From: a virus
Length of the DNA stretch: 64,000 nucleotides
IMG/VR virus record: IMGVR_UViG_3300029915_000003
Reading direction: 5' to 3' (one strand)
A program made the position numbers and the translations under genes. Positions 26,007 through 57,738 of the stretch are shown here, one piece after another; the first letter of the stretch is position 1; each line of letters starts with the position of its first letter. The notes under the pieces are model-generated. The model did no database searches. It was not told where the DNA came from and saw only the letters and a program-made list of their open reading frames with translations.

Positions 26007-27947
26007 ATGGCCAAGAAAAAACAACCAGAATTAAATGCCCTGGAAGAGGTTCTGAGTCTAAATAAGACAGAAGTTGGTCCTCATCTGGGGAAACGCTTAA
26101 TTACTGCTTTGGAAAATACAGTAGAATCAGATGTTAAATCTGTTAATCGTATAGGTTTTACTGTAGATCCGGTATCTGAGTCCCAAAATTCTTACTCTAC
26201 TATTTTCGTATACAAACCCCAATTCCTCTTAAGCGACATAATGCTTAAAAGGGTCGCCAGGGGAGATGAACTTGTAGCTGCCATAGCTACTGCCCGCTCA
26301 AACATGCTTGGTAGCTTTGGAGCACCAAGGGCGGATCGGTTTTCGTTTGGTCATAAAATTGTAATTAAACCAGAACTGGCCCATGAGTTAGATCAAGACA
26401 CAAAGGATGGTTTAAAGAAAAAGGTAGACGTTGTTGTTGATAAATTGGTAAAATGCGGTTCAGATCTTAAGGATGGAGACCATCTAAGCCTACGAGAGTT
26501 CCTGCACATCCAAGCTCGCTCAGCCATTATTTTGGGTAGATTTGCTACGGAGCGCATTTACAGGGATAATCCTTTTACTAATAAGAAGGAATTCTTCGCC
26601 TTCCGCCCTATAGATGCGGGCACTATATATGTAGCTACCAATCAACAACGGGCAGCAGCTAAGATCCGGGAAGAAGCCCGCAAGACCCTTAAAAGACTAC
26701 GTAGGGACAAGCATATAGATGAAACTTTCGAAATAGACCGTTTCGAAAACGATGAATATAAATGGATTCAAGTAATTAACAATCAACCCAAACAAGCATT
26801 TACTGATGATGAGTGCTGTGTAATTAATTGCTATCCCGTTCAAGACTTTGAGTTGTGCGGGTATCCCTTAACTCCTATAGATACGGTTATTTCGGCTATT
26901 ACCACTCACATTAATATCTCTGTATGGAATAAAGGCTATTTCCAGAACGGAAGAGCCAGCAGGGGTATGTTGGTTATTAAATCGGACGATGTTACAGAGC
27001 GGGAAGTTGGCTTGATTAGACAGCAATTCCAAGCCTCTATTAATGGGGCCAGCGCAGCCTTCCGTATGCCTGTCTTTGGCGTTCCTGAAAAGTCGGATAT
27101 CAACTGGATGCCAATTGATGCTGGCTCTAGGGATATGGAATTTCAATACCTTTCAGACTCCAATGCCCGTACTATCTTGTCTGCCTTTCAAATCTCTCCG
27201 GAAGAAATTCCAGGTCTGGCCCATCTTTCCAGGGGTAGCAGTGCTCAAGACACCTCTGAATCTAATGGCGAATACATGCTTACCGCTCATAGAGATGTAG
27301 GCTTGCGCCCCCTGGTAAACATCTTTGAGACTTTCTTGAATGAACAAATCCTACCCCTTCTAGACGAAGAGGTAGCTCGCTATTGTACAGTTAAATTACT
27401 AGGATTAGAAGCCGATACCGCCGAAAAGGAATCAGTACGATTCCAAACTGACGGCCCCATCCACATGGAGTATGATGAGATCCTACAACGGGTAGAGAAA
27501 CCTACTGTTGGTAAGGAATGGGGAGGTAAATTCCCTCTAAATCCTCAATGGCAGTCAATTATAGATAAATATCTATATGTGGATGAAATTCGTACACATT
27601 TCTTTGGATTGCCCCCAGATCCAAATTTCCACTACGTAAGGGACCCTTATAATTTTCAATTTCTCCAGTTTAATTTCCAAAAACAACAAATGGAAATGCA
27701 AATGAAAATGCAGGAACAAGCAATGGCCGAACAGGGAGCCCAAGCCCCTTCTTCTCCAGCAGGCGGGAGTATGAGCCCCACACCCCCTGGAGAAGAAGGA
27801 GTGAATGCACAAAACCTACCTAAAACCAAGGATCCCAACTATGTCAATGCCCAAAATGAAAAACCCAATATGGCAGTAAATGCCACAGAGGGTCAACTTT
27901 CAGAAGCTGCGGGGAAAGCAGGAGAAGCTTTTGGAGCTAAACCCTAA
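26007..27947 (+). CDS. portal protein
   Basis: FRPIDAGTI, YPLTPID, YFQNGR...GML, DMEFQ, AFQISPEEI and GLRPL motifs. Confidence 0.88.
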   Translation: MAKKKQPELNALEEVLSLNKTEVGPHLGKRLITALENTVESDVKSVNRIGFTVDPVSESQNSYSTIFVYKPQFLLSDIMLKRVARGDELVAAIATARSNMLGSFGAPRADRFSFGHKIVIKPELAHELDQDTKDGLKKKVDVVVDKLVKCGSDLKDGDHLSLREFLHIQARSAIILGRFATERIYRDNPFTNKKEFFAFRPIDAGTIYVATNQQRAAAKIREEARKTLKRLRRDKHIDETFEIDRFENDEYKWIQVINNQPKQAFTDDECCVINCYPVQDFELCGYPLTPIDTVISAITTHINISVWNKGYFQNGRASRGMLVIKSDDVTEREVGLIRQQFQASINGASAAFRMPVFGVPEKSDINWMPIDAGSRDMEFQYLSDSNARTILSAFQISPEEIPGLAHLSRGSSAQDTSESNGEYMLTAHRDVGLRPLVNIFETFLNEQILPLLDEEVARYCTVKLLGLEADTAEKESVRFQTDGPIHMEYDEILQRVEKPTVGKEWGGKFPLNPQWQSIIDKYLYVDEIRTHFFGLPPDPNFHYVRDPYNFQFLQFNFQKQQMEMQMKMQEQAMAEQGAQAPSSPAGGSMSPTPPGEEGVNAQNLPKTKDPNYVNAQNEKPNMAVNATEGQLSEAAGKAGEAFGAKP

Positions 27948-32385: not shown

Positions 32386-34350
32386 TCATATCGTTTTCTT
32401 CCACAACCATCGGTCTTTACCGCAATCCCAAATACGGTTTAGGCCCATGATCTGTGTTGCCTCCGTCTCAGTCATTCCGTCTGGACATCCGATCTTTTCC
32501 TTGCGGTATTTACTTTTGTGCTTACGAAACGTGTCACTACCAGACTTGACATAAGAATAATCTGGTAGAGATGTATCTGTTAACACAAAATTTGCATTTT
32601 TATACATATTCCCTTGCGACCACCGTTTATCTGAAAAACTAACAATATCAGTTACATTGTTATTTTTAACAAAGTTAGACATCAATCGATCGAATCCGCC
32701 TGTTACTGCATATCCTATTTTGACACAATATCTATTTAATTCCCAAAAACCCGGTACCGAATAACCCTTTCTTTCCGGAGAGGAGGGTGAAAATGTCATG
32801 GCTGCTATAATCTCCCCATCCACCTCTAATACATATGGATTCCTGACGATATCTATTGATTGTATGTGATTTTCTTTGATAAATTCGGACACCTTGGCCG
32901 GATCTCCCGGTTTGACTATTCCATCTCTGGCACCAATACGCTTTATGTCTTTATGTTTTAATATGGCTTTAATATATCCTATAACTTGTTCTCTTTTTGT
33001 TAGCCACTCATCCGCAAATATGGTAATTAATCGTATACCTTTTGCTTCTGCTGACTTTAATTTATCTAAATGCCTATTCTTTGCATTCGGCTTGGCGTCG
33101 CTGTGCCAATATAGTCCGCAGTATTCAATTGCTACATTTTGTTCTGGTATGTAAATATCTAATTCTTTCCCATTGTCAAGAACACTTCTTGTCTTTTGAA
33201 CATTATAACCTAAATCTTGTAGTAATTTTGCTATGTTACGCTCTTCTCTACTTTGTTCACAACCACAAGACTGTGCCCGTTCATAGGCTATTTCCCATAG
33301 CACAGCGGTAAACAAAGATCCACAAAAACACCTGAGTTCCACTCTTTCTGACATAGACGGAACGCGATCCGTATCTATGCGCTCCCCAACCAAAAGGAAT
33401 TCTTTGTTTTTTGCTGACTGTCTGATGTCGCCCCAAGTGTATTTAGAGTCGCGCTGCATGTTGTTTTTGCGCGCTTCCTCGTCCAGTAGAATTTCACGTT
33501 TTACGCACTCCCTGGTTACGACTCCCTTGTCAATTCCAAAAAAGTCAGCAATTTCCTGACAGCTCTTTTTATCAACTAGTCGCATATTCGCTATAGCATC
33601 TAGGGTTGTCCTAGAACACGGAAGAAATACATGATCTTTTTGACTTTGACTTAGAGTTATCCCCTGTGTAGATAGGGACCATTTTATTTGTCCTAAACTA
33701 TAACCGGTTTCTTTGGATATTTCTGGTATAGTTAATGGTTTATTTGTATCTCGTAGCAATCTAATAGCAGTATTAATTTCTTCTCGATTATCGTCAACCA
33801 AAATAGCACTTAATTGAGTTTTGTCTAACAATACACCCTCGTTACGACAAATATATTCAACGGTATCTTCTGATTGACCAGTCAGCATCGCAATTTCATA
33901 ATATGAAGGAGTGTTTTTTTGTTTTCTGTAATCTGTTATAATTTTTCTAAGCTCATCAGAGTAAATTCTGCGAACTTCGCTCTGTCCTTGTTTGCTTAGA
34001 TAAAATCCATTGTCGCTACAAATGGTACGCACCTTGTTTTCGTGTAATCCCAAAATGGTAGCGATTGATTTTTCAGAGCAATTGGAGTCTTTTAACTGCT
34101 TGATTTTGTTTATTGTTTCTTGTGAAACTGGTGTGTAATCGTGGGTAAGTCTTCCTTTGTGTATGTTTTCTCTGCGTGCTTCCTTGCTTAATTTAGCTCC
34201 ATTTCTAGTAGATAGTTTATTTACCTGAGAAACAGTCAATCCAAGCGTAACGGCTATTTCTTTGGCTGTTTTTCCTTCTTTTTTTTGTCGTATAATTTCT
34301 GATTTAATTTCTGGTGAAGCTCGATACCGTTGTCCTGTGCTCTGTGTCAT
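32386..34350 (-). CDS. free-standing Hef-like homing endonuclease with tandem HTH repeats
   Basis: About six HTH repeats, CxCG/SCGC, ELDIY...AIEYCGLYWHS, and a C-terminal WELNRYC...SFSD.R domain; own TTGACA-N17-TACTAT promoter. Confidence 0.75.
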   Translation of the reverse strand: MTQSTGQRYRASPEIKSEIIRQKKEGKTAKEIAVTLGLTVSQVNKLSTRNGAKLSKEARRENIHKGRLTHDYTPVSQETINKIKQLKDSNCSEKSIATILGLHENKVRTICSDNGFYLSKQGQSEVRRIYSDELRKIITDYRKQKNTPSYYEIAMLTGQSEDTVEYICRNEGVLLDKTQLSAILVDDNREEINTAIRLLRDTNKPLTIPEISKETGYSLGQIKWSLSTQGITLSQSQKDHVFLPCSRTTLDAIANMRLVDKKSCQEIADFFGIDKGVVTRECVKREILLDEEARKNNMQRDSKYTWGDIRQSAKNKEFLLVGERIDTDRVPSMSERVELRCFCGSLFTAVLWEIAYERAQSCGCEQSREERNIAKLLQDLGYNVQKTRSVLDNGKELDIYIPEQNVAIEYCGLYWHSDAKPNAKNRHLDKLKSAEAKGIRLITIFADEWLTKREQVIGYIKAILKHKDIKRIGARDGIVKPGDPAKVSEFIKENHIQSIDIVRNPYVLEVDGEIIAAMTFSPSSPERKGYSVPGFWELNRYCVKIGYAVTGGFDRLMSNFVKNNNVTDIVSFSDKRWSQGNMYKNANFVLTDTSLPDYSYVKSGSDTFRKHKSKYRKEKIGCPDGMTETEATQIMGLNRIWDCGKDRWLWKKTI

Positions 34351-34496: not shown

Positions 34497-35888
34497 TTAA
34501 AATGTTGAAGCGATATTATCAAGCAACACATTCTTGCGGGGCTGATAGCCTCGAACGCAGAGGAAGCGGAAATGACCCTCAGGTTGGGATAAGTCAGTTA
34601 CCGCTAGCTTTACTCGGCTGTATGGGCTTAGTTCGGCAAAGTCCCACGTATCTGATTGGAACGCAGTACCAGTAACGAAACCAGGGATACGATTGCCTAG
34701 GTCCGTAAAGGTTACAGTGGTCGCACCAGGGGTTACCGCTACGTTACCAATGAACTTGAACGTTGAACCACCGGCCGCAGTACGGAATACGCGGCAGAAC
34801 TTAACCGGTTGCGTAACAGTGATTACAGAGGCTACTTGCTGACCGGCCGCAGTGATGGTCGCAGTAATGGCAGGTGATAGAACTGATTCACCAATTTCAT
34901 TAACTGAGGTCGCCTTGTATTGGTAAACATCGCCCGCATTGAACGCCGTGCTGCCTGACGTAATGCTCGCAGCGCCCATGGAAGGAGCCGCAGGGCTGTT
35001 CGCACGAGTCGGATCAGGACCAGTACGGCCTGAGAGGAAGCGTGACGCGGTTAGACGCATCGTGCCACCTGAAACCCATTGCCTACGTAGATCCGCCCCG
35101 GTCGCGTCTTGAGGTGAGTTCGCTAAGATAATGCGTTCTTTGCCTAGAGCGATCTTGTTGTACGCTGATAGCGTCTTTGGATCTAGGAGGAATTCATCGG
35201 CTGAACCCATGTTCATCGCTGAACGAACTGAGCAGTCCTCTAGGTTGGTTTGCTGTAGAACCGTGCCGCATTGTAGAACTACCGTGTCATCGGAACCATA
35301 CGCACCGAACATGAGGTCGTGGGCGTTACGTTGTGAGTCTGATTGACGAACTTGAACGGTAACACCGCTCATATTCGCTAGGGACGGGATAGCGTTCGGG
35401 TTACCATCAAATACGCCCGCATTGCTAAAGTCGTCCTTGCCGCGCCAACCGTCGAACTCGATATCGCCAGCGATTTTCTTGGTCGCATCTGACGCAGCGC
35501 GTTCCTCGTTGCCCTTGCCATCGACCGTATCAACTAGCGTCGCTTGGAGGGTAACCCTACGAATTGAGGAGTAGTAGCTCATAGGATAAACGATACGAAC
35601 GAACGAGCTTACTTCCTCTTGACCGATCGCACCTTCGATTACAGCTGAACCACCAAAGATACCGTAGCTTAGTTGACGATCAAACTGAGCGGTAGTAGCC
35701 TTAATCGGCTTAACTTTGAGTAGCTTCTGGAGACGAATCGCATCGTCACCGAAAGTAACTACATGCATTACGTCCGAAAGGTCTTCGCGTTGTAGCGCGG
35801 CACCTTGGGTTAGAGTGGAAGGAGCGGCATTGTAATTGCCCGCTTCTAGGGCTTTCGTTAGATCCATTAAAGTTTGAAGTGCGTCCAT
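34497..35888 (-). CDS. major capsid protein (SPO1/Twort-like) with inserted Ig/Fn3-like domain
   Basis: KALEAG...P...GAALQREDL N-terminus; strongly biased codon use; followed by a terminator. Confidence 0.85.
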   Translation of the reverse strand: MDALQTLMDLTKALEAGNYNAAPSTLTQGAALQREDLSDVMHVVTFGDDAIRLQKLLKVKPIKATTAQFDRQLSYGIFGGSAVIEGAIGQEEVSSFVRIVYPMSYYSSIRRVTLQATLVDTVDGKGNEERAASDATKKIAGDIEFDGWRGKDDFSNAGVFDGNPNAIPSLANMSGVTVQVRQSDSQRNAHDLMFGAYGSDDTVVLQCGTVLQQTNLEDCSVRSAMNMGSADEFLLDPKTLSAYNKIALGKERIILANSPQDATGADLRRQWVSGGTMRLTASRFLSGRTGPDPTRANSPAAPSMGAASITSGSTAFNAGDVYQYKATSVNEIGESVLSPAITATITAAGQQVASVITVTQPVKFCRVFRTAAGGSTFKFIGNVAVTPGATTVTFTDLGNRIPGFVTGTAFQSDTWDFAELSPYSRVKLAVTDLSQPEGHFRFLCVRGYQPRKNVLLDNIASTF

Positions 35889-35928: not shown

Positions 35929-36831
35929 TTATGACAACAGATGCTTAATTGCTGAAACGTCGATTTCGCCTAAGAAGTAATGCATGACCGTATCTAATTC
36001 GTGTTTAGATAGGTTTCCTGATTCTACTTTCTTGTTAAGAGCAGTACGTATTTCGCTCTTGCTAAGCGTAGGGACTTCTTCGGGCGTCTTAACGTCTATA
36101 CCAGTAAATGACTTACGCATCGGCTGGGTGATCTTGTTAATGGCATTAATCGCCATATCTAAGGTCTTGGAGAGGTCAACAACCTTGGTCTCTAATTCTT
36201 TATTAGATTTCTTTAGGTCGTTAATTTCCGTTTCTGATTTCATTGCTGGAGCCGGAGCCGGAGCAGCCGCAGGAGCAGCAGGAGCCGCCGCAGGGGCTGG
36301 AGCGGGAGTGCCGCCCATACCTTGAGGAGCCGGAGCCGCTGATTGCGCCATTTTGGCTTCAATAACTTGCTTGATAGCCATAAAGTGGGCTTCTAGGCTT
36401 TGTGGGTCTAGTTTTCCATATTCGGCTGATAGTTGTTCCGGGGTAACACCCTGATCTTGCGCAGGATCTTGCCCAGGGGCCGGAGGTAGACCCGCATCAG
36501 GCGTCATTCCGGTGTCGGCAATGGCGTTATTCGGATCTTCTGAAGGCCCCGCGTCCGGAGGACCACCGGCACCACAAGTGGGGCAAGCAGATCCCCCAGC
36601 CGGAGCTTCTGATTCACTAGCCGGAGGAGCACTAGGAGAAGGACTCGGAGCTTCCGCAGTCTCGCTAGCTTCGTCAGGAGAACCTTCAGACGGAGCGCCA
36701 GCCCCATCCTCGTCCTTGGCTAAGGCCGCAGTTCCTTCGCTTTGGCTCTTTTTGAGAGCATCAGCGAAGAGATTGTGGGCCTCCTTAACGAGCGTATCAA
36801 GCTCTGATTTAGTAATATTTTCGAAATCCAT
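35929..36831 (-). CDS. probable capsid scaffold protein
   Basis: Acidic, Pro/Ala-rich, coiled coil; many KS sites; upstream of the MCP. Confidence 0.6.
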   Translation of the reverse strand: MDFENITKSELDTLVKEAHNLFADALKKSQSEGTAALAKDEDGAGAPSEGSPDEASETAEAPSPSPSAPPASESEAPAGGSACPTCGAGGPPDAGPSEDPNNAIADTGMTPDAGLPPAPGQDPAQDQGVTPEQLSAEYGKLDPQSLEAHFMAIKQVIEAKMAQSAAPAPQGMGGTPAPAPAAAPAAPAAAPAPAPAMKSETEINDLKKSNKELETKVVDLSKTLDMAINAINKITQPMRKSFTGIDVKTPEEVPTLSKSEIRTALNKKVESGNLSKHELDTVMHYFLGEIDVSAIKHLLS

Positions 36832-37480: not shown

Positions 37481-37876
37481 ATGGAAAAAACATACCCCCA
37501 AACCAAGATTTGTGTTATTTGCAAAAGAGAATTAGACACCAAGAAGGATTTTTACGTAAGAGATATTGATTCTAGTTGCCCTAGAAGTGAGTGTAAGGCT
37601 TGCTTTATTATCAATAAGAGAATGCGCAAATATAATAAGTTTTGTTCAGAGTGTCATCTACCGTGCCGTCCAAAACGTAACGGTAAATGCTATAAATGCA
37701 ACAAAAGACAAGGGCTACGAGAATGCTCCCGGTGCTTTCAGTTGCTTTCTTATTATTTGAGCTTTTACAAGGATAGGGGTTCTGTATGCAAAAAATGCTA
37801 TCTAAAGGGTCTAAGGAAGACTCGTAAGAAGGATGCTTTTGAACAGTTCTATGAAATACTATCCAAGTTTATGTAG
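37481..37876 (+). CDS. multi-CxxC zinc-binding protein
   Basis: Six CxxC motifs; basic. Confidence 0.55.
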   Translation: MEKTYPQTKICVICKRELDTKKDFYVRDIDSSCPRSECKACFIINKRMRKYNKFCSECHLPCRPKRNGKCYKCNKRQGLRECSRCFQLLSYYLSFYKDRGSVCKKCYLKGLRKTRKKDAFEQFYEILSKFM

Positions 37877-38741: not shown

Positions 38742-38794
38742 ATTTAATTAAAATTGCTATTTGCTACAAAAGGTGAGGTAATTTTATATGTAAA

Positions 38795-40723
38795 ATGGAC
38801 AAACACAACAACCAGACCATGGATAATTCCCAATCTCAACCCACAAACAAAAATTTATCCATGATTATAGATGGACTAGTATCTGTAGAGTCGCCCGATA
38901 AGAGTGCAGAAACACTTTCTATCGAAGGGGCCGACATCTCTTCTCTTGTTGGTGGATCTCTCAACAGAGAGCATGCCGATACTAAAGAGTTTGGTTTTTC
39001 CTCTGTTGTCGGAAAGTGTATATATGCAGTAAAATTAATAAAAAGAACCGATTGTTCCAACGATAGAGAATTAAGTTTTTGGGATAAATGGGAATTACCG
39101 TGCATTTACGCAAAGTTTAGATTGTTCAATGATCACGAAGAATCTCTCGCTGCACAGTCTATCATTAGGGATAGTTTTATTAACAATGAATCTCTTCCCG
39201 GCCTTTCAATAGAAGGAAAAACAATTAAACAAGAAGGCTCCATATTAAAATCCACAATTGCTAGGGATGTTGCTTTAACCTTTAAACCAGCCAACGCAGC
39301 TTGTATAACTGGTGTTTTAGAGGATCCAGTTATTGGCTATAAATACCAAGAAGTAGAAGAAGAGGAACTAGGTAAATCCCTAGAGGCTGGTAATTGTAAT
39401 TCGGCTCCCGGAACCCTTACTCAGGGAGCGGCCCTACAAAGAGAATCCATAGGGAATAAGGTAGCCAAGGTTAAGGTACCCAAGGGTTGGAAAGACATTT
39501 ACAAAAAACTTTCTGTTAAATATGGAGTTCAAAAAGCCCTGGAAGCTGTAATGGAAGCTTCTAGTACCCAAAAATCAGAATTAAAGGTAGAATCGGTGGT
39601 CTCCAATCTTCCTACCGTAGAGGCATCCCCCTTGCTTTTGAAGTTCGAAAGTGATATCGTAGAATTTAAACAAGTGGTTTTGGACCTTGGTCGGCTAATT
39701 AAGGCTGAAAAGGATTCATCTCCAGTAATAACTATGCGTGACAATCCGGAAATCAAATATAAGGTCCTAGGGGAAGACCCCAACTTTTATTACCTAAAAC
39801 ACTATAAGGATGAAGGTATTCCTGGTAACATAACTAAGGTCCGTAGGTTTGCTATCGACCAATTCTTTGATACCTCCAATCTACCCAAGAATCACACTGA
39901 GACTTCTACCGATGATGCGGTAACCAAGTTTACTCATTCTGCCAACCAATTATCTTTGTTAAATGGTATTAATCTAACATCCAAGACCAAGCCTCCAGAG
40001 CACTACAGGGAGGGTGTAAATAGTAATTACCCAGATAAACCATTTTGGACTAAGAACAAAAACAAACAAGCGGTATATATCAAAAACAACATATCCGACA
40101 TTCCCAATCAGGCTGAACATGAAGGTATTTATAACCTATTTGGTCATAAGTATTTTGGCTTGGGAGAACACTTACCGGTAGTTTCTGTATTCAAACACCC
40201 AATTACAGGAGTTAACACTTTGGCTGTCGAAGGTATCCCTAACGTTAGCCATCTACGCAAATACCATGACGATGAAAAGAACACAGACGCTCCGGTATTG
40301 GATCATTGTGACTGTCTAGCCCACAACGGTTCTAATGGCAATTTAGATCGCCTATTTCTAGCGGATTGGTTGCTTGGAAAACAAGACCGCTCTCGTATGA
40401 ATATGCTATTTAATAATAAAGATACCTCTAAATTGCATATAATCGATAATTCCAATCTCTTTACTCCAACAAAAGAGTTAACCCAAACCGGAATATATCC
40501 CAAGTACTCTATGTACTACGATAGGGTGAATCCAGCTTTCAACAAAGAAACCCTTCCTTGGTTTCAAGGACTCAACCTCCCATCCATGATAGCTGATTTA
40601 GGTAAGATGGGTGTTAGCCATGATCAAATAGCTGGGGTTATGTCTAGATACGCTCAAGCAGCCAAAGCACTATCCGATCCACAAGGTAGCCGTAGTAAGC
40701 TTTGGCATGGAGGCTACACCTAA
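38795..40723 (+). CDS. prohead protease fused to a C-terminal HipA/PI3K-like kinase domain
   Basis: Protease: S...D...E, NREH, GLSIEG, VALT..PAN. Kinase: VYIK, E.E, DWLLGKQDRSRMN, IIDN..F. Confidence 0.75.
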   Translation: MDKHNNQTMDNSQSQPTNKNLSMIIDGLVSVESPDKSAETLSIEGADISSLVGGSLNREHADTKEFGFSSVVGKCIYAVKLIKRTDCSNDRELSFWDKWELPCIYAKFRLFNDHEESLAAQSIIRDSFINNESLPGLSIEGKTIKQEGSILKSTIARDVALTFKPANAACITGVLEDPVIGYKYQEVEEEELGKSLEAGNCNSAPGTLTQGAALQRESIGNKVAKVKVPKGWKDIYKKLSVKYGVQKALEAVMEASSTQKSELKVESVVSNLPTVEASPLLLKFESDIVEFKQVVLDLGRLIKAEKDSSPVITMRDNPEIKYKVLGEDPNFYYLKHYKDEGIPGNITKVRRFAIDQFFDTSNLPKNHTETSTDDAVTKFTHSANQLSLLNGINLTSKTKPPEHYREGVNSNYPDKPFWTKNKNKQAVYIKNNISDIPNQAEHEGIYNLFGHKYFGLGEHLPVVSVFKHPITGVNTLAVEGIPNVSHLRKYHDDEKNTDAPVLDHCDCLAHNGSNGNLDRLFLADWLLGKQDRSRMNMLFNNKDTSKLHIIDNSNLFTPTKELTQTGIYPKYSMYYDRVNPAFNKETLPWFQGLNLPSMIADLGKMGVSHDQIAGVMSRYAQAAKALSDPQGSRSKLWHGGYT

Positions 40724-41195
40724 TATGCAAATCTTTAATATTCACAGAATCCATATAAATCCAGAAGGTGAAACCCAGCGACAATTAGTAGGTAAATACT
40801 CATTGGATAATGGGTTGTTTAACGTATTGGAAGACCATGAGGGTGTTTTCGATGGAGCCCAAAGTGGCGGTCAAGTAACTCCAGACCTACAAGCCACTTT
40901 AGATGGTTTTAACTCCAGCTCCTATTATCAAACTGAAGATATAGACAGTATGGAGTATAAGCTAGGGGAAATACCAGAAAGCACCGTTACCGATTTAGCC
41001 CACCTACATAACGATATGTTGGCTAAAAATCCCACCCAGGAATTTACACTGGCCAGAGACGGTAAAGCCTACAAATTATGCTATAATCATGCCTTGGGTA
41101 CCTTTACCATAAATAATAGTAGCGCCACTCCAGAAGAAATAGACTCCATCCTAGAAGAGGTACGTTCCGGTAGAGCAGCTTTAGAGGGTCTATAA
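40707..41195 (+). CDS. hypothetical protein
   Basis: ORF in the protease operon. Confidence 0.6.
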   Translation: MEATPNMQIFNIHRIHINPEGETQRQLVGKYSLDNGLFNVLEDHEGVFDGAQSGGQVTPDLQATLDGFNSSSYYQTEDIDSMEYKLGEIPESTVTDLAHLHNDMLAKNPTQEFTLARDGKAYKLCYNHALGTFTINNSSATPEEIDSILEEVRSGRAALEGL

Positions 41196-41197: not shown

Positions 41198-42325
41198 ATG
41201 AATTGGTTAGATGATTTAATAAAAAACAATCCTACCTTCAAGGAATCACTAGAAAATCTAGGGGGTTCGGGAGGGGGAGTGTCTTCAGATGATGTTCAAA
41301 GACTTAATAATCATCTAAATACAGACACGCTTACTGGTCTTGGCAACCGTAAGGCTTATAACGAACATATATCCAAAAATCCAGAAGGATTCCACATACA
41401 CATAGAAGGCAACGATCACGGGCATTTAACTAAAACCCATGGGATTGGCCCATCTGAAGACGCCTTAAAAGCCTACGCTACGTCTGCCCAATCGGCGATG
41501 GACACTATGGTTGGCAGAGGTAAGGGAAAACTATTTAGATTGGAAGGTGATAAGTTCGTAGCCCACATCCCTACCGAAGCTGAAGCTCATTCATTTGTAA
41601 GAGCTTTCAGGAATCATCTAGAGTCCCATCCTCCTGTCATGGGAACCCACAATATGGCTGCTACGATTGGGATTGGTTCTAACCAACTAGAAGCATCTGG
41701 AGCCTTGAAAGAAGCCAAGGCGGACCGTAAGGCTATGGGTTACGAAAAGGGTAGTTCTAAAACCCACATCAAAATTCATGGTTCTGATATTTATAAATCA
41801 GAATCAGAATTTCCGGATTTACAGAAAATGGCCATCAAGGGCTTGGCTCCTGGACCTCAGGTCCAACAAGATATCTACGATTATTCCCACCTACTAACTC
41901 CAGCCCATAGGGCTTCTGGCTATAAAGTACAGCTTAAGTCTAGACGAGTAGGTCATGGTAGGCATACGTTGGAGTCCAACATCTTCCATAACGAGATCCC
42001 AGTTGGATTCGCTTCTTCTTTCATGGAACCAGACCATTTAGGGCGTCCAGCCGTCAATATAGAGCACTCCAACATAGAGCCTGAACACCAACGTAAGGGT
42101 CTTGGAGTAGCGGCATACGAAGCCCTATTGACTCATGGCCATCATAAGCTTGGAGCTACCAGGGTTGCAGGAGACATACATTCCACCTCTGCCTCTGGAG
42201 TCCACCAAAAGCTTTCCGACAAGCACGGTATGGACTATAAACCTCAAGATAACCCGAATAAGTTTCACGATCAAACGGGTCCTTACGACAACAGATTCTC
42301 AGAATATAATTATCCCATAAAGTAG
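41198..42325 (+). CDS. degenerate GGDEF domain fused to a GNAT acetyltransferase
   Basis: TDTLTGLGNR and FRLEGDKF; IEPEHQRKGLG acetyl-CoA motif A. Confidence 0.75.
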   Translation: MNWLDDLIKNNPTFKESLENLGGSGGGVSSDDVQRLNNHLNTDTLTGLGNRKAYNEHISKNPEGFHIHIEGNDHGHLTKTHGIGPSEDALKAYATSAQSAMDTMVGRGKGKLFRLEGDKFVAHIPTEAEAHSFVRAFRNHLESHPPVMGTHNMAATIGIGSNQLEASGALKEAKADRKAMGYEKGSSKTHIKIHGSDIYKSESEFPDLQKMAIKGLAPGPQVQQDIYDYSHLLTPAHRASGYKVQLKSRRVGHGRHTLESNIFHNEIPVGFASSFMEPDHLGRPAVNIEHSNIEPEHQRKGLGVAAYEALLTHGHHKLGATRVAGDIHSTSASGVHQKLSDKHGMDYKPQDNPNKFHDQTGPYDNRFSEYNYPIK

Positions 42326-47920: not shown

Positions 47921-48088
47921 TTATTAGGGGAAAATTATCTTAAAAATTCCAGGTGTAATACGTAAAGTCCCCCCAAACCCCAAAACCCCCTATCCTACCC
48001 AGGGGAACCTCCCCGGATAGTATCACCTATACCCCCCCCCGTGATTACCCTGTAAGGAATAACCCCTAAGACTAAGGTCCAGGATCCT

Positions 48089-48238
48089 TGGCAAGGATCT
48101 TGCTTGGTAAACCCGGTATGTTTATTGCATAGGGGAACCGGCATGGTTATTGCTAGTGGTAGCGTGGCAACGATATTGCAAGGATCCTAATGGTATGGTT
48201 ATTGCATAGGGATTTCGTTGCTTGCAAGCCTTATGCCA
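48089..48238. promoter_or_regulatory. phased array of sigma54 -24/-12 boxes
   Basis: YGGYA...TTGCW (GG-N10-GC) at 48089, 48114, 48139, 48165 and 48191 (+) and 48223-48238 (-). Confidence 0.75.
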
Positions 48239-48278
48239 TATCATTAGCAATGGTTTCCCGGCTATGGTCCCTTTGGAT

Positions 48279-48294
48279 TGTTCCACGTGGAACA
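48279..48294. promoter_or_regulatory. parS site
   Basis: TGTTCCACGTGGAACA inside a perfect 24-bp palindrome at 48275-48298. Confidence 0.8.
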
Positions 48295-48389
48295 ATCCTG
48301 CGCGTGCGCATGTGTGTGTATGTGGATGTGAGTGTATGCCCACATCTATATATGGTGTGTCGTACCCAAGACCTAGGTCTCAAGCTTTC

Positions 48390-48432
48390 TGGGGATAACC
48401 TGTTAGTAAGCTGTTAGTAAGCCTGTGGATAA
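48390..48432 (-). promoter_or_regulatory. DnaA-box cluster
   Basis: TGGGGATAA, TGTTAGTAA x2 and a perfect TGTGGATAA at 11-12 bp spacing. Confidence 0.65.
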
Positions 48433-49007
48433 CTTTTGGCACGGATCTTGTCTAGGCGTTTTCAGCGTCTGGACGGGATAGAGCCTAGGGATCCTCGGGC
48501 CGCGCTAGGAAGGGCGGATCCGCTCGTTTAATTGGCATTTAGCGCAAAGCGTCATTTAATCCGACTTTAGTCTTATTTTTGAGACCCTAAGCAAGATCCT
48601 TGCCAAAGAGTCTAAGCTATGTCGGCACGTTTGTTGCTACGCGCGCGGGCGCTTGATCCTTTGGTAAGGGATTAGAATTTCCCCTACGGGGAGAAACCGT
48701 TCGTTTGAGACGACGACGCATTGCGTCAAGAGTTTTACGTTAGGGGAATTCGAGGATTCCTCTAGCGGTCTAACCCCTTGAATTCCTTACTGTACAGTTT
48801 CACTACAGACTATGACAACCTTGTCCTAGTGACTTTTCTCAATGGTTTCATACAGTTAACCCTTTTTAGACCTTAGTCCTATGATCCAAGCGTCTCGATC
48901 CTGTCTGTTTTGCTGTACCATTTGGATCGTTTCCCCTACGGGGAGAGATCGTTCGATCCCATTGTAATCATTACACTTTTTTCCCCGCCCTGTTTTGGCG
49001 TAACGCT

Positions 49008-49023
49008 TGGCATGGCCGCTGCA
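49008..49023 (+). promoter_or_regulatory. candidate sigma54 promoter for the DUF932 operon
   Basis: TGGCATGGCCGCTGCA (GG-N10-GC), about 155 bp upstream of the ATG. Confidence 0.4.
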
Positions 49024-49178
49024 TAATAGGCCATTATCTCAGTTTGGTTCGCTCCTCTCTCTCTCCGAGGCGTTTCCCCTCTCCCCGCTGTTTCCCTCTA
49101 CAGAAAAAGGATTGACGGCCCCCTTCTTCTCTGGTACAACCTTCCCCGCTGTTTCCCTCTACGAAAAGGATCCTCCCC

Positions 49179-50390
49179 ATGATTTCCACCGATACCGATA
49201 TTGATTTCGCTGGCCTCACTCCCACCGAGACGCCGATCGCCTCGGATCCGGCCCCCATGGCCGATCTGGATCTCATTGAGTACGTTTCCCCTTCCGATCC
49301 GCACGTGATCATTCCCGAGATCGTCTCCACGCCTAACACCGTCTTGGATCACTCGGTCGGTTTCGGTCGCGTCGATGGCGATGAGCGCGCCGCGCTGGAC
49401 ACTGGAACCGTCCAGTTCGTGAGTTCGACCACCACGTCAACGGATCTGGCGGGAAACAGCACGGCCAGCGTTCAAACGATGGGTATGGTCGCAGGGGGCG
49501 CGCGCGAGATCCTGGCCAAGGCGGATCTGGCCTTTACCGTCGAAAGCGCGCCGATCTACACGTTGCGCGGAGGTCTTCCCGTCCAGATCGAAGGCAAAAA
49601 GGCGCTTGTCCGCACCGATACCGAGGAACCGGTCGGACTGGCAGGCGATGGGCGCGGGATCATTCAGTACGGGGAATGGGGCGAGGTGGTGGATATGCTG
49701 ATCGAACGCGCGAATGGCGAATTGTCGTTTGCTAACGCGATCAAACTGGACAACGGCGGGGCCATGGTTATGCAGATGGCCCGCAAGGGGAGCGTGGGGC
49801 GCTATGACGTTAAGGACATGATCACGTTGATCACGTCCCACAACGGTCGTTTCGCTGCCACGTTGGGATTTTCCCGCACCATGGTCGTTTGCGATAACAC
49901 GCTCGCGCATGCTCTCCACGAGGCAAAAAACGGGATCAAACTGAAGCACACCCGCCACGTTGCAGAGCGGTTCTCGCTCATTGCGGATGCACTCGAGATG
50001 TCGAAGGCGTATGCGGGCGCGCTGGATAATCACACGCTCCGGATGATGGGCCAAAAGATGACCGATGATCAGATGGTGCGGCTTGCGTCGAAACTGATCC
50101 CTTCCGATAGCGCCCGCGCGGAGGGTATGCGTGAAAAGCTGATCAGTGCGTGGACTACCGCGCCCGGAGCGGCTCCGGGGACGCGCTGGGGCGGATTGCA
50201 AGCGGTTACGTACTACACCTCCCACCTCATGGGATCGCGTGACACTGGACGCGCAGCGCAAGCCGCGAAATTTGAATCGCAATACATGGGAGCCGCGCAA
50301 AAGTTTTCGCAGAGCGGTTTTGACGTTCTGACGGACGATCGGGAATTCGAGGGACTGGCCAACGTGCAGATCGTCCGTCGCGCTCTGTAG
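49179..50390 (+). CDS. DUF932/DUF945 phage-plasmid family protein
   Basis: ALVRTDT, SHNG, VVCDNTL, KHT and GT.WG..QAVT motifs. Confidence 0.8.
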   Translation: MISTDTDIDFAGLTPTETPIASDPAPMADLDLIEYVSPSDPHVIIPEIVSTPNTVLDHSVGFGRVDGDERAALDTGTVQFVSSTTTSTDLAGNSTASVQTMGMVAGGAREILAKADLAFTVESAPIYTLRGGLPVQIEGKKALVRTDTEEPVGLAGDGRGIIQYGEWGEVVDMLIERANGELSFANAIKLDNGGAMVMQMARKGSVGRYDVKDMITLITSHNGRFAATLGFSRTMVVCDNTLAHALHEAKNGIKLKHTRHVAERFSLIADALEMSKAYAGALDNHTLRMMGQKMTDDQMVRLASKLIPSDSARAEGMREKLISAWTTAPGAAPGTRWGGLQAVTYYTSHLMGSRDTGRAAQAAKFESQYMGAAQKFSQSGFDVLTDDREFEGLANVQIVRRAL

Positions 50391-50587
50391 TCGGCCGTTG
50401 TTAGGGTACCGAGGGGAGGGATCTTCCTCGCGGTACCTTGTAGAGCGGCCCCATCCTCATTATGAGCGCAGTGTTTTCAACCTATACCAATTGGACCTTC
50501 CCTCTGTTTGCGTTGCGCCTTGGCCTGTTTCCCGCTCTTCTCTGATACCGTTTTCAGTTTCCGTTAACCGCCATAAAGGAAAAACCC

Positions 50588-50800
50588 ATGAAAACACCGA
50601 AAGTCTCGAACGTGGATCTCTTTCAGCTGCTCAATATGGCTTTTTGCGAAGGACAGGACGGAACGAAGTGGGAGGATCTGGCCTACACGTTCAGGTGCGC
50701 TCGCGATGATAAAGCTTTGGCCGACATGGGCGCTCGTTTCTTTGATGATGATTCCCTTGTCAACTTCTATGTACAGGTTAAGCTGGCTTTCGAGGAATAA
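50588..50800 (+). CDS. hypothetical protein
   Basis: AAGGA RBS. Confidence 0.6.
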   Translation: MKTPKVSNVDLFQLLNMAFCEGQDGTKWEDLAYTFRCARDDKALADMGARFFDDDSLVNFYVQVKLAFEE

Positions 50801-51156
50801 CCCATAAACAGGCGCTTAAACACGCTCGCGGCGGGATCCTCCCGATACTGCGCGTGTGTGTACAGGATATCGGCCGCATCCCATAACGGTTAAAGGCTGT
50901 TGGGGTAGGTTAGGAGGATCCTCTTTTAACCTACCTTGTAGAGCTTTCAACCTTCCCCTTTTAACCCATAAAGGAAAAACCCCATGCCTACCACCAACGG
51001 CCACATTAACAATCTGCGAGAGGCGACCGATCTGGATCGTGAAACCGCTACGTCCCACACTGCCTATTGGGATTGTTACGGATTGATTCCTCGTGCAAAA
51101 CCTACCTTGTAGAGCTTTCAACCTTCCTTCTTTTAACCCATAAAGGAGAATCCACA

Positions 51157-51591
51157 ATGGCAAACATTGGCGAGACAGACAGAAACGGATTCACGACAGT
51201 GCACGTAGAGGAGAGCGACGGCGTGTGGTATGATCTGGCGATCTCTCTGGACGAAGAGAGCGAGATTGATGGATCGTTCAGTGATAGCAGCGTTGCGGAC
51301 TATGTGCGCGAACAGATTGCAGCAGGAAACCCATGGGCATGGTGCGTTGCCCGCGTCACCGCGCGAGCAGGCGAGGGGCGTGGAGTCGATTACCTCGGAT
51401 CCTGCAGCTATAGGGATACTTCCGAGTTCGTTCAGCCCGGTGGTTATTTCGACGATATGAAGCGGACGGCCCGGGCGGATCTCGTCTCGGAACTCAAACT
51501 CTCGGTAGATGTTGGCAACGCAGCGCGCGCCACGCTTGCGAAACTGTCAGGCAACCCGGATCCCATCTACACGCTGCACGATAACGGTTAA
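51157..51591 (+). CDS. conserved phage early protein; paralog of 53875-54264
   Basis: WAWC..V.A...G...DYLG.CS...Y..DM. Confidence 0.65.
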   Translation: MANIGETDRNGFTTVHVEESDGVWYDLAISLDEESEIDGSFSDSSVADYVREQIAAGNPWAWCVARVTARAGEGRGVDYLGSCSYRDTSEFVQPGGYFDDMKRTARADLVSELKLSVDVGNAARATLAKLSGNPDPIYTLHDNG

Positions 51592-51675
51592 AGGCTGTTG
51601 GGGTAGGTTAGGAGGATCCTCTTTTAACCTACCTTGTAGAGCTTTCAACCTTTTACCCCATAAAGGAAAAACCCC

Positions 51676-52071
51676 ATGCCTACCACTACCAAAAGGATCA
51701 CACCAATGAAACCCAATTTTGAGATCATCGATCACGGCTGTGAACACGGCCAGTATTTCCAGGGGTGCGGCGTCTCTTTTACTCCCTTTTTGCATGTTGT
51801 CACCGGGGTAGCAGATACCCCGGCCGATGCACTCGAGGATGCTATCTCTAGTCTGTACGATCAGGCGGAACGGCCGGACGATGAAGCATTGACCGCGATC
51901 GAGGCGGAAGCGGCCGTCTTGATTGCTAACGCGCCTGCTACCGCACACAAGAATTGCCACGAAGATTGCCGTCAATATTTTGACGGTACTGATGAACAGT
52001 TTGAACGCTCGCACGAAATGTGCGAAATTGCCTATCGGGTATCAATCCGCTTTGGACGAAAGGAAGGCTAA
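51676..52071 (+). CDS. hypothetical protein
   Basis: RBS; DHG.E..QYFQGCGV motif. Confidence 0.6.
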   Translation: MPTTTKRITPMKPNFEIIDHGCEHGQYFQGCGVSFTPFLHVVTGVADTPADALEDAISSLYDQAERPDDEALTAIEAEAAVLIANAPATAHKNCHEDCRQYFDGTDEQFERSHEMCEIAYRVSIRFGRKEG

Positions 52072-52342
52072 CCCGTATGCGTATGCGGAACGGTAAAGCG
52101 CACCGGCTTTGCTCAAAAGGAAGCAATCCGACTCGAGGATGGTACAACCGCCATGTAGTCAAGCGGATCACAGCTAAGGCTATGCGGCGTGCCGCTAAGC
52201 TGCTCAATGAGGATTGTCCGCGCATGGTCGGGATCGGATGGTGCTTTTAAGTGTTTTAACCGCTGTTCGAGTAAGCCAGTGCTTTCTTGGCTTACTCTTT
52301 AGAGCGGTTAACCTGTTTTAACTCTTTCCCCCGAGGTATCCC

Positions 52343-52906
52343 ATGGCTCTCAACATCTTCGATTCATACAACAACAAGATCGTTTTGCCTAACGATATCA
52401 ACGGATTAGACGTTACCGTTAAACAGTGGAAAGGATCTAAACATCGGCAATACATCGAACTTAAGGATCTGGACGGTCGCGCCATCATCCTGCTAAGTCC
52501 TGAGAATGCGGGAGATACGGGATACATACACGCGGGGGGCGCTTCTTACCGCATCGCTGAAAACGGTTACAACGGCGATGCTGTTTGGCTTGGGCGCTGC
52601 GCTCCCCGCTATTTCGTATGCTTTGGGGAAGATCTAGAAGAAACGATCGAAAGCGCGGCGGAGTGGGCCGCTGACAACGCGCCCGGGTACCTAGTAGAGG
52701 ATTCCCTTATCCATACGCTCTACAAAGAAGCCTTCGCGGAAGGATTGAGCGAAAGAGCCGCGCAAGAGCAAGCGACACAAGATATGATCTACACAGAATC
52801 GGGGTATATTGAATCCGAGGATCTAGGTGTTTTCAAGCCTAGCGCGGAAGTTTTGTCCGCTGCTACCGTTATCGGTAAAATGCTGCGCGCAGAAAGCGAG
52901 GGTTAA
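52343..52906 (+). CDS. hypothetical acidic protein
   Basis: GAGG RBS; 187 aa. Confidence 0.6.
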   Translation: MALNIFDSYNNKIVLPNDINGLDVTVKQWKGSKHRQYIELKDLDGRAIILLSPENAGDTGYIHAGGASYRIAENGYNGDAVWLGRCAPRYFVCFGEDLEETIESAAEWAADNAPGYLVEDSLIHTLYKEAFAEGLSERAAQEQATQDMIYTESGYIESEDLGVFKPSAEVLSAATVIGKMLRAESEG

Positions 52907-52909
52907 ACA

Positions 52910-53365
52910 ATGGCAAACACTAGGGATTTTGTGGCGAAGTATGGGATCAAGGTGCAGGCCATCCGCACCGTTAGCAATCCGAATGCAACAAAAGGCGACT
53001 GGAACGACAAGGCGCGGCACTGGCTTTGTGTGTTGCATAGGGACTCGGGCCAAAGCGCCCCCGTGCAACGTCCTAACGGATCATGGGTTAAACAGCCGAT
53101 CGCCCATACGATGCCAGTCTATTTCTCGCAAGGATCAGGCCACAAGCGGGAGCCCACTGCTTGGGACGTGCTCGATTGCCTTGCATCGGACGTATCCGGA
53201 GCGGATCAAGACTTCGGGGGATGGGCCGGTGATCTCGGTTACGACAAGGATTCAAGAGAAGCGGAACGCACGTTCAATACTATCAAGCAACAGTCGGTTG
53301 CGTTGGGGGAGTTTTTGGGCCGACCGCTTTTGTCAGAGCTTTTGACCGATTATGAGGGTCTTTAA
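52910..53365 (+). CDS. conserved phage hypothetical protein
   Basis: DVLDCLASD...F..W..DLGYD.DSR motif. Confidence 0.65.
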   Translation: MANTRDFVAKYGIKVQAIRTVSNPNATKGDWNDKARHWLCVLHRDSGQSAPVQRPNGSWVKQPIAHTMPVYFSQGSGHKREPTAWDVLDCLASDVSGADQDFGGWAGDLGYDKDSREAERTFNTIKQQSVALGEFLGRPLLSELLTDYEGL

Positions 53366-53431
53366 AAGCTAAAAAGCTTAGTTTTTACCATTAGTTAAAC
53401 CCTCTTTACCCCTAAACCCGAGGCTTTCCCA

Positions 53432-53659
53432 ATGGAACCGCACGGAACGATCATAGAAGGCCGCTTAAAAGGCACTCGCTGCGCTTTGGTGCGGGTTGTC
53501 GATCCTCCCGCGCCTTGCTCTGGTAGTGAGACGGTGCGCCTAGAAATGGTGGTGGTGCGAGTGTTTGACTGTGCGGATCCTAGCTTTTCGCCTGAATGGC
53601 CGATCCGCATTCCTCGTGCGCATGTTTTGCTTGACTCCGATGCACCGAAAGAAGGCTAA
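53432..53659 (+). CDS. hypothetical protein
   Basis: Leader CCCTAAACCCGAGGCT shared with 54766. Confidence 0.5.
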   Translation: MEPHGTIIEGRLKGTRCALVRVVDPPAPCSGSETVRLEMVVVRVFDCADPSFSPEWPIRIPRAHVLLDSDAPKEG

Positions 53660-53874
53660 ACTATATGAAAGCATATGATATTGTCCGCCGATTCTACGGT
53701 TTAGACCCTATTGTTTCCGAGGATAAGCTGGTGGAAATGGTGGCAAACGACGGAAGAGGAGTGCAAGGAATGCGGGAGCGAAGAGCCTAACCATCAATGC
53801 GATAACTGCGCTTAAAATAGGTATGATTTAACACACATTAACCTACACTCTCTAACAAAAAGGTTATAGATTAT

Positions 53875-54264: not shown

Positions 54265-54311
54265 TTGGTAGTATATAAACCCCAATTACAATCGTTGAAA
54301 GGAACTATAAA

Positions 54312-54671: not shown

Positions 54672-54765
54672 ATATATCCTCGATTTGATCCGCTCCCAAA
54701 AAGCTTAGCGAAACCAAGTAGTTATCTTTTCAACCGCTGTTAACCCTAAACCCGAGGCTACCCGT

Positions 54766-55257: not shown

Positions 55258-55533
55258 AAATCCGCCCGTCTAAGAGAAAGGTCTAAACCCATGAAAACTG
55301 ATAAAAGCTCGAAATGCACCTACTGCGCGATGGGTTTTAAGGCGAATGAATACGGAAGGCACCCGGAAAGCCACGATCCAGAGCAGCGGCTTTGCCCTAA
55401 GTTCAGGGCAGAACAGGAACAACGCGACGCGGACGCTTTCGCTTCTCGCAACTAGAGCTTGACTTGCAAAAGGATCCGGGTCAAATAGGCTTTAACGCTC
55501 TTAAAGGCGCTTTCTCTAACAAGGGGTAAACAA

Positions 55534-57729: not shown

Positions 57730-57738
57730 GAATAACAA

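Follow-up and report, generated by a model that had tools for sequence, protein, structure and literature searches.

The gene at positions 38795..40723 of the window, by which we mean the whole stretch of 64,000 nucleotides that was analysed, probably encodes a capsid-maturation protease made as a self-cleaving polyprotein, in which an enlarged C-terminal 'propeptide' would be an enzyme cargo. Judging from the sequence, the structure models and the analogy with known head proteins, we give this reading a probability of roughly 55 %. The phage comes from peat, is uncultured and is related to Myxococcus phage Mx1. The initial annotation had described the product as a prohead protease fused to a kinase via a copy of the capsid N-terminus, and all three parts are borne out, the two enzymes by their folds and the copy by its identity to the capsid arm. 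They follow one another along a single chain:

38795..40723, plus strand: 642-aa ORF of the protease-kinase polyprotein, comprising protease, arm copy, linker and kinase
38855..39349, plus strand: prohead protease domain, residues 21-185; assemblin fold, AF2 pLDDT ~97
39368..39448, plus strand: copy of the N-terminal arm of the major capsid protein (MCP), residues 192-218; 21/27 identity to MCP residues 10-36
39374-39379 (K and S codons), plus strand: predicted self-cleavage site L192-G-K194↓S195, within the arm copy (the arrow marks the cut)
39449..39904, plus strand: Lys-rich linker, residues 219-370; AF2 confidence low where modelled, residues 261-329 left out of the model
39527..39538, plus strand: second candidate cleavage site V245-Q-K247↓A248, from a pattern scan; followed by L-E-A, as in the MCP
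39905..40720, plus strand: type II PI4K-like kinase, residues ~371-642; AF2 pLDDT 88.6, pTM 0.84

The arm copy and the linker, which lie between the two enzyme domains, are modelled with low confidence (pLDDT 50-66). The 642-residue protein matched no Pfam family at E<=0.1 and no PHROG at E<=0.01, a single-sequence search against PDB sequences returned a chance match only, and 10 kb of the window found no match among phage records by megablast. The protease is likewise missed by the curated models (Pfam Peptidase_S78/U35 and the PHROG protease), its homology being at profile level only: hhalign joins the domain to the SPO1-like and LMTA-34 (S78-type Herelleviridae) proteases at E-values of 1e-15 and 1e-9 respectively, and the LMTA-34 protease itself matches Pfam S78 at 7e-5. 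The best structural match of the modelled domain is T4 gp21 (5jbl; Z 10.3, rmsd 2.8, 121 aa), and VIA-align Z scores of 9.9, 7.6 and 6.7 were obtained for the VZV, HCMV and KSHV proteases, compared with 5.8 for the next unrelated fold. All top 50 Foldseek matches are herpesvirus proteases or gp21. His60 (38972-38974) and Ser138 (39206-39208) are invariant in sets of 41 and 92 relatives; when the SPO1-like and LMTA-34 proteases are aligned, the two residues fall on their N-x-x-H and S-[IV]-E-G motifs. His114, a candidate third catalytic residue, is invariant in the Mx1-like clade and is also found in LMTA-34; the SPO1-like enzyme has no His at the aligned position.

The capsid protein from which the arm would be copied is encoded on the opposite strand, next to a probable scaffold gene:

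34497..35888, minus strand: MCP, 463 aa; phrog_752 match at E 1e-40, 55 % identical to the Mx1 MCP
35781..35861, minus strand: MCP residues 10-36, the original of the arm copy; predicted maturation cut K12↓A13
35929..36831, minus strand: 300-aa probable scaffolding protein, rich in Ala and Pro, part of it coiled; lies immediately upstream of the MCP

The segment behind the protease had been noted as nearly identical to the MCP start, and the comparison agrees: the local alignment score is 108, as against 38 ± 4.5 for 300 shuffles. The underlying DNA matches at just 55 of 81 bases, and the same codon is used at only 9 of the 21 identical residues, therefore the similarity appears to be maintained at the protein level and not to stem from a recent DNA duplication. 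The two arms also co-vary: among 31 genomes the arm copy resembles the MCP of its own genome (17.97/27) more than the MCPs of other genomes (16.30/27), a value not attained in any of 10,000 permutations, in a test that ignores kinship among the genomes. A Leu-to-Tyr change is common to arm copy and MCP in particular lineages, and so is a one-residue insertion.

In Mx1 and in phages of the SPO1 and A511 types, too, the protease domain is followed by this arm copy. The Herelleviridae proteases (SPO1-like and A511/LMTA-34-like; Peptidase_S78) share with the window protein a homologous domain followed by a Lys↓Ser arm copy, however, they are only ~255-265 aa long, end in a short tail after the copy and carry no enzyme cargo. 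Since these proteases have the copy without any cargo, the sequence comparison indicates that the arm copy is an old part of the protease lineage and no special linker of the kinase fusion. The capsid copy of the initial annotation is thus present, whereas its role as a device joining the two enzymes does not hold.

The Lys↓Ser bond within the copy is the predicted point of self-cleavage. Lys194 is kept in 90 of 92 relatives, with a hydrophobic residue at P3 and Ala, Thr or Ser at P1'. The capsid protein of Listeria phage A511 is reportedly matured at a Lys-Ser bond, and a homologous capsid protein lends support to such a cut: the mature phi812-type MCP in PDB entry 9row begins at Ser25, right after Lys24, at the aligned position, and has 439 aa as compared with 463 aa in 5lii. 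Because the L-x-K↓A/S site is shared and the mature phi812-type MCP starts at K↓S, we infer that the protease trims the capsid protein during maturation. Six [LIVMF]-x-K-[AST] sites are found in the scaffold, whose homologue adjoins the MCP in 33 related loci. Cleavage behind Glu in A-L-E↓A, in the style of T4 and phiKZ, was also considered and rejected, as the Glu is replaced by Thr in most protease copies while Lys is retained in 90 of 92.

Three further sites of Lys↓Ser/Ala type had been proposed downstream. All are present, but VQK↓ALEA alone fits the conserved pattern: TQKS (residues 258-261) has no hydrophobic P3, and LIKA (residues 301-304) aligns in relatives to a G-K-x-V-x-P-G block. 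The position of VQK↓A (245-248) is not conserved in relatives, and K247↓A248 may serve as a second cut on the strength of its motif. If this bond is used, the arm copy would be parted from the kinase and therefore could not anchor it.

The C-terminal domain had been called HipA/PI3K-like, and a fold comparison had been proposed as a check on it. The modelled domain does have a two-lobed kinase fold of PI3K/PI4K type, with PI4K II alpha as a match at Z 19.2 (rmsd 3.1 Å, 240 residues); the alpha and beta enzymes (4pla, 4wtv) both give Z ~19 over ~240/272 residues. Helicobacter pylori CtkA (3akj) follows at 14-15, HipT at 12-13.7 and HipA at 10.4-10.8. Membership of the PI3K/PI4K/HipA superfamily is thereby upheld; within it, given Z 19 as against 11-14 for HipA and HipT, 'type II PI4K-like' is on the model the more exact label and 'HipA-like' the less exact one. 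Sequence identity to the type II PI4Ks and CtkA is 13-15 %. These proteins and the window kinase have in common the D-R-x-x-x-N and I-D-N/H motifs, and the likeness to the type II PI4Ks is one of fold and motifs, implying neither a lipid substrate nor membrane-anchoring inserts in the window kinase.

Foldseek gave 266 matches to the kinase at E<1e-3, headed by PI3Ks, with 7e-7 for p110 and Vps34. Although the window protein lies below the Pfam threshold, 35 of 41 relatives match PF00454 at E<=0.01 (best 1.3e-13), and the family profile hits among PDB sequences only PIKK, PI3K and PI4K catalytic loops (E 0.005-0.4). No HipA Pfam family is among the matches of the 41 relatives. HipA_2 clusters are included among the structural look-alikes in the ESM Atlas, which we take as a lead only. 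No HTH antitoxin gene of HipB or HipS type adjoins the kinase gene, the locus being a phage head module, and a word-based search of limited sensitivity found no short stand-alone relatives of the kinase part. The catalytic loop Asp531-Asn536 (DRSRMN) lies at 40385-40402 and the IIDN motif at residues 549-552; the ATP-binding Lys430 (40082-40084) with its partner Glu443 (40121-40123), the Mg-binding Asp551 (40445-40447), and D531, R532 and N536 of the loop are invariant or at least 90 % conserved. With this full set of catalytic residues the kinase is apparently active.

A survey of the C-terminal domains of orthologous proteases, as the initial annotation had suggested, shows that the cargo position is variable. 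Among 79 related loci the protease is followed by a kinase in 23 and by a canonical GGDEF cyclase in at least nine, the rest having other or unknown domains. A search for related loci from the single protein gave no relatives, and the loci were obtained from an alignment of closer relatives. The protease-kinase protein matches 823 clusters (50 % identity) at E<1e-3, most of which unite protease, arm copy and kinase in a single polypeptide; the 10 family members that were looked up are all metagenomic and unnamed or annotated as 'hypothetical protein'. A search of genome contigs for relatives yielded 5 loci, all in metagenome bins. In the kinase-bearing loci a cyclase is encoded by the next gene or the one after, and in the window too the protease-kinase gene is followed by:

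40707..41195, plus strand: 162-aa ORF; 17-nt overlap with the end of the kinase gene
41198..42325, plus strand: GGDEF-like plus GNAT protein, 375 aa; same gene string, two genes downstream of the protease-kinase gene

In some relatives homologues of the 162-aa ORF are fused to the N-terminus of a GGDEF protein, and relatives bear a GGDEF domain of the type seen at 41198..42325 at the C-terminus of the protease itself.

Among cultivated phages a relative was found in Mx1 alone, namely its 'putative prohead protease' (WNM70322.1, 1239 aa; genome OR576727.2). It has the same order of protease (36-44 % identical), arm copy and C-terminal kinase (30 % identical, E 4e-15), the copy matches Mx1's own MCP, and the two genes downstream (small ORF, nucleotide cyclase) correspond to those of the window. 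Unlike the window, Mx1 has ~600 extra residues without a Pfam match between arm copy and kinase, and its MCP gene lies downstream on the same strand. The Mx1 genome announcement makes no mention of a kinase or an arm copy, and no published description of the arm copy or of the protease-kinase fusion was found in the literature.

These features suggest the following course of events. As every prohead protease, the polyprotein would be built into the procapsid and would thereby bring the kinase inside, with the arm copy acting as shared substrate and recognition element and perhaps doubling as a loading handle. Once activated, the protease would cut the MCP at K12↓A13, itself at K194↓S195 and possibly at K247↓A248, and the scaffold at several L-x-K↓S/T sites. 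A folded kinase fragment of ~40-50 kDa would be too large to exit the shell and would stay in the DNA-filled head, from where it would most likely be expelled with the DNA and could phosphorylate a host protein or lipid right as infection begins. Packaging, virion retention and injection of the kinase are thus what we infer from the analogy with other phages. A wider proposal, which we regard as possible but doubtful, is that arm copy and Lys↓Ser site serve SPO1/Mx1-type phages in general as a module for loading and release. In the Mx1-like clade each head might then be filled with tens of copies of PI4K-like kinase and/or GGDEF cyclase, and these, injected with the DNA, could rewire host phosphorylation or cyclic-nucleotide signalling (for example nucleotide-based immunity) before phage gene expression.

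The kinase could instead work in the producing cell late in infection, the protease fusion coupling its expression or timing to head assembly, with little or none of it in virions. We consider this unlikely, although the gene does sit in a late-type string of head genes, with neighbouring genes tightly spaced or overlapping. A promoter scan stayed at chance level, and no clear unit boundaries emerged from terminator-like sites. Cytoplasmic phage kinases do exist, T7 gp0.7 being an example (cited in PMC5512222). Such a role, however, does not sit well with the fact that the cargo is always preceded by a conserved protease site matching that for capsid maturation. It also has to contend with the enzymology of the family, since prohead proteases such as HK97 gp4, T4 gp21 and the herpesvirus assemblin are generally active only within procapsids. 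A GGDEF cyclase as the alternative cargo in the same position suits a delivery module better than an enzyme timed to assembly.

Rather improbable, in our view, is that a packaged kinase serves head assembly, acting on scaffold, portal, MCP or DNA-associated proteins, or is simply a bulk core protein and no host effector. It is true that the kinase is physically tied to the assembly protease, that scaffold and linker are rich in Lys, Ser and Thr, and that large myoviruses commonly have internal core proteins (PMC10052503). Yet in 54 of the 79 related loci no kinase is detectable with the protease, while MCP and scaffold are conserved; the kinase is therefore dispensable for building a head of this kind, and that a nucleotide cyclase can take its place speaks for interchangeable cargo.

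Very improbable, too, is that the C-terminal domain has lost its catalytic activity and is left only as a large propeptide or scaffold-like spacer that is degraded after maturation. Besides the failure of the window protein to reach the Pfam threshold, the loop has DRS instead of the DRH of the family, Ser replacing the family His, and the adjoining GGDEF-like gene has the degenerate signature EGDKF, so that not all 'cargo' enzymes here need be active. Nevertheless Lys430, Glu443, Asp531, Asn536 and Asp551 are all present and invariant or nearly so in the family, and the modelled fold is compact (pLDDT 88.6). Type II PI4-kinases themselves are not known to carry a His at that place. That the fusion is an artefact of metagenomic assembly or gene calling can practically be dismissed even for a window from a peat metagenome, as Mx1, a sequenced isolate, has the single-ORF architecture too, and so do independent protein clusters and IMG/VR contigs by the hundred. 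The window stretch is present in contigs of at least 10 peat runs, with no RNA run among the runs listed.

The reading as a self-cleaving protease with an enzyme cargo has partial counterparts among known head proteins. The herpesvirus assemblin precursor has R and M sites. This precursor (pUL26 type), SPN3US gp245 and T4 gp21 resemble the window protein in joining the assemblin fold to a C-terminal extension, and their extensions are self-removed at a motif that matches the capsid or scaffold substrates (PMC10052503). Specifically, gp245 removes its own C-terminal propeptide in vivo at the motif found in its substrates, and head proteins that are ejected are also processed by it (PMC10052503). 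The extension in these cases is a scaffold or a 64-residue propeptide, cut after Ala or Glu, whereas in the window it is a kinase with a predicted cut after Lys. Purified Herelleviridae virions contain prohead-protease peptides (PMC12282133; PMC3601020).

Enzyme domains attached to a head-assembly protein, and differing from one related phage to the next, are also familiar from T4 Alt and the internal proteins, MuF-fused toxins and polyvalent proteins (Iyer et al. 2017, PMC5512222; Jamet et al. 2017, PMC5576092), and the head-packaged 'polyvalent' effectors typically bear kinase, GNAT and GGDEF domains (PMC5512222). The carrier there is MuF, the portal or an N-terminal targeting peptide, unlike the maturation protease of the window, and the polyvalent-protein kinase is a truncated Ser/Thr kinase, while that of the window is of PI3K/PI4K type. 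If the proposed delivery is correct, this would be, as far as we have found, the first case in which a phage head delivers a kinase of PI3K/PI4K type and the first in which the maturation protease itself is the cargo carrier. It would provide a simple, testable rule for loading foreign proteins into heads of SPO1/Mx1-type phages and releasing them there, and Mx1 with Myxococcus xanthus offers a cultivable system for the idea. The family concerned is a large one (over 800 clusters at 50 % identity), and even well-studied phages (SPO1, A511, the K/phi812 group) have a co-evolving capsid cut-site and arm copy in the prohead protease that seems to have gone unremarked.

As a minor observation on the gene itself, an alternative in-frame ATG at 38819 would give a 634-aa form, and this form is present in the protein library.

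The window derives from a large myovirus of peat metagenomes that has not been cultivated, and a sequencing-run search found more than half of the stretch in contigs from at least 10 peat runs. Chaperonin, ribonucleotide reductase and thymidylate synthase are also encoded, along with the following genes.

23026-24984, terminase
26007-27947, portal
34497-35888, minus strand, major capsid protein (MCP), matching phrog_752 at E 1e-40
35929-36831, minus strand, probable scaffold of 300 residues, Ala/Pro-rich with a coiled C-terminal half
38795-40723, plus strand, polyprotein of 642 aa
40707-41195, plus strand, ORF of 162 aa overlapping the end of the kinase gene by 17 nt
41198-42325, plus strand, GGDEF-like and GNAT protein

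The initial annotation described the polyprotein as a prohead protease fused, via a copy of the capsid N-terminus, to a PI3K/HipA-like kinase. The ORF is borne out as real, and so are the protease and the copy. Its start is ambiguous (38770-38821): the ATG at 38795 lies about 16 nt after a Shine-Dalgarno-like A-A-G-G-T-G-A-G-G, and an alternative ATG at 38819 would yield 634 aa, as in the protein library entry.

Residues 21-185 were modelled by AlphaFold2 from a 92-sequence alignment with pLDDT of about 97, and the model indicates a capsid-assembly protease fold. Structural alignment placed T4 gp21 first (Z 10.3, rmsd 2.8 Å, 121 residues), followed by the varicella-zoster protease (Z 9.9) and then the HCMV and KSHV proteases, the best unrelated fold reaching a Z of 5.8 only; the top 50 Foldseek hits were all gp21 or herpesvirus proteases. 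His60 and Ser138 are invariant across the family. Using hhalign, the family profile matched two prohead proteases: one from an SPO1-like Bacillus phage at E 1e-15 (probability 98.6%), the other from LMTA-34, an A511-like Listeria phage, at E 1e-9. The latter protease itself matches Pfam Peptidase_S78. No Pfam or PHROG model reached the window polyprotein; its protease is a divergent family member, visible only at the level of profile and fold.

Directly behind this domain, polyprotein residues 192-218 are identical to MCP residues 10-36 at 21 of 27 positions, with an alignment score of 108 against 38 ± 4.5 in shuffles. At the DNA level only 68% of the bases are alike, and of the 21 identical residues just 9 have the same codon; selection on the protein has therefore preserved the match, which is no fresh duplication. 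This capsid-arm copy is old and general. Myxococcus phage Mx1, with an MCP 55% identical to that of the window, encodes a 'putative prohead protease' (1239 aa) made up of the same three parts; the arm copy in it resembles the Mx1 MCP, not the window MCP. Similarly, in the proteases of Bacillus phage SPO1L4 (L081:3416-4177, about 253 aa) and LMTA-34 (L080:4084-4878, 264 aa), the protease domain is immediately followed by a segment that repeats the N-terminus of the respective phage's MCP together with its Lys|Ser site. Both copies align with that of the window in hhalign, and in the SPO1-like protease the similarity to the MCP extends about 10 residues beyond that in the window. Mx1-type proteins (L001:7959-11678 in Mx1 itself; P0006, P0015) additionally have about 600 residues between arm copy and kinase, a region that includes conserved blocks (V-P-D-T-H-F, for example) and has no match in Pfam.

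The copy also changes together with the capsid protein. IMG/VR provided 78 related loci, about 60 of them containing both genes. Among 31 non-redundant genomes, the arm copy shared 17.97 of 27 positions with the MCP of its own genome and 16.30 with those of other genomes; the own-genome value was reached by none of 10,000 permutations, in a test which ignores shared ancestry and counts lineages more than events. A Leu-to-Tyr change in one lineage and a one-residue insertion in another are found in arm copy and MCP alike.

A Lys ahead of the arm copy is kept in 90 of 92 aligned family sequences, with L/I/V at P3 and A/T/S then L/I/M after it. The phi812-type MCP, from a Staphylococcus-infecting relative, has been deposited in two lengths: 5lii has all 463 residues, and the chain in 9row, of 439 residues, starts at the Ser immediately after the aligned Lys. 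By homology, maturation cuts are predicted at K12|A13 in the window MCP and K194|S195 in the polyprotein. The propeptide of MCPs in this clade is just 9-14 residues, so that most of the shared segment lies on the side retained in the mature capsid protein; the segment may bind the groove of the protease itself, adjacent capsid subunits or the scaffold. The strict pattern [LIVMF]-x-K-[AST]-[LIMFV] has a single match in the MCP, the maturation site itself, and just two in the polyprotein, at 192 and at 245 (V-Q-K|A-L-E-A). Among the further sites suggested earlier, V-Q-K|A thus fits, T-Q-K-S lacks a hydrophobic P3, and L-I-K-A is not a conserved site, aligning instead with a G-K-x-V-x-P-G block of the relatives. 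Six looser [LIVMF]-x-K-[AST] sites in the probable scaffold are what its sequence would be expected to show if the protein is digested; one, M-R-K|S-F-T-G, resembles the A511-type capsid site.

For residues 330-642, a model from 91 sequences reached pLDDT 88.6 and pTM 0.84, its opening 40 or so residues being disordered. Foldseek retrieved 266 PDB chains at E<1e-3, led by PI3K p110 and Vps34. In an independent structure search type II PI4-kinases ranked top (Z 19.2, rmsd 3.1 Å, 240 residues), clearly above H. pylori CtkA (14-15), HipT (12-14), PI3Ks (about 11) and HipA (about 10.5) as well as ATM, Fam20 and CotH. Conservation is complete or almost complete at Lys430, Glu443, Asp531, Arg532, Asn536 and Asp551; the catalytic loop reads D-R-S in the window and D-R-H in the family. 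Pfam PI3_PI4_kinase was matched by 35 of 41 relatives (best 1.3e-13), and a search of PDB sequences with the family profile returned only PIKK, PI3K and PI4K catalytic loops. The initial PI3K/HipA-like assignment holds at superfamily level, and on the modelled fold 'type II PI4K-like' appears the more exact description.

What follows the arm copy is variable. HMMs built from the alignments found the kinase fused to the protease in 23 of 79 loci and as a separate gene in 2; in the remainder the protease has just a short tail or runs on into an extension of another kind, as long as 1,650 residues. Five of eight scanned long non-kinase proteases end in a GGDEF domain (E 1e-10 to 1e-15), and BLAST found the same cyclase fused to the protease C-terminus in at least nine related loci. 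Where the kinase is present, as in Mx1 and the window, the cyclase gene follows directly or after one intervening gene. The window's version has an added GNAT domain and the signature E-G-D-K-F, where all 23 relatives compared keep G-G-D-E/x-F. The intervening 162-aa ORF has no family match; three related loci (L015, L018, L037) have a homologue of it fused N-terminally to their GGDEF protein. Kinase, GNAT and GGDEF are all domain kinds listed for head-packaged 'polyvalent' effectors (PMC5512222).

The domain set, conserved site, co-variation and variable cargo are established by this analysis; the remaining steps of the mechanism we infer. The polyprotein would enter the procapsid, as any prohead protease must, and cut the MCP, the scaffold and itself, each after Lys; the compact kinase fragment would then be trapped by the shell and remain with the DNA. 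We estimate a chance of roughly three in four that the kinase enters the procapsid. Its persistence in virions is somewhat favoured. Purified P100-like and Bc431v3 virions contain protease peptides (PMC12282133, PMC3601020), which shows that such heads can retain material derived from the protease. By analogy with T4 Alt, internal proteins and the SPN3US ejection proteins, the kinase would most likely be meant for injection into the next cell; action in that host is proposed tentatively. SPN3US ejection proteins are processed by gp245, which cuts off its own C-terminal propeptide at the substrate motif (PMC10052503). Protease precursors that cleave themselves are already known, as is enzyme cargo packaged in heads; new here is the protease as carrier, with a PI4K-like kinase or a cyclase as cargo. 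Our literature search found no paper on the protease-kinase fusion or the arm copy, the Mx1 genome announcement mentions neither, and the records of ten family members are nameless or read 'hypothetical protein'.

Other features of the window may be mentioned. Among the head genes, 37481-37876 (plus strand, opposite to its neighbours) encodes a protein of 131 residues that is rich in Cys and has numerous C-x-x-C pairs; 17 related loci have a homologue close to the protease gene. Immediately downstream of the MCP gene, 32386-34350 (minus strand) encodes a homing-endonuclease-like protein of 654 residues (phrog_3339, E 3e-83) that contains several helix-turn-helix modules. Across 48000-60000 the G+C content climbs from about 0.39 to 0.50-0.54 and genes turn small and co-oriented; among their products are DUF932 and sigma-70 region 2 proteins and, at 58922-59821, a pentapeptide-repeat protein carrying DUF5758. 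The ribonucleotide reductase ORF (5231-8173, minus strand) matches its family in two separated stretches and a 755-aa ORF (18341-20608, plus strand) has a weak intein-splicing match; both may contain inteins.
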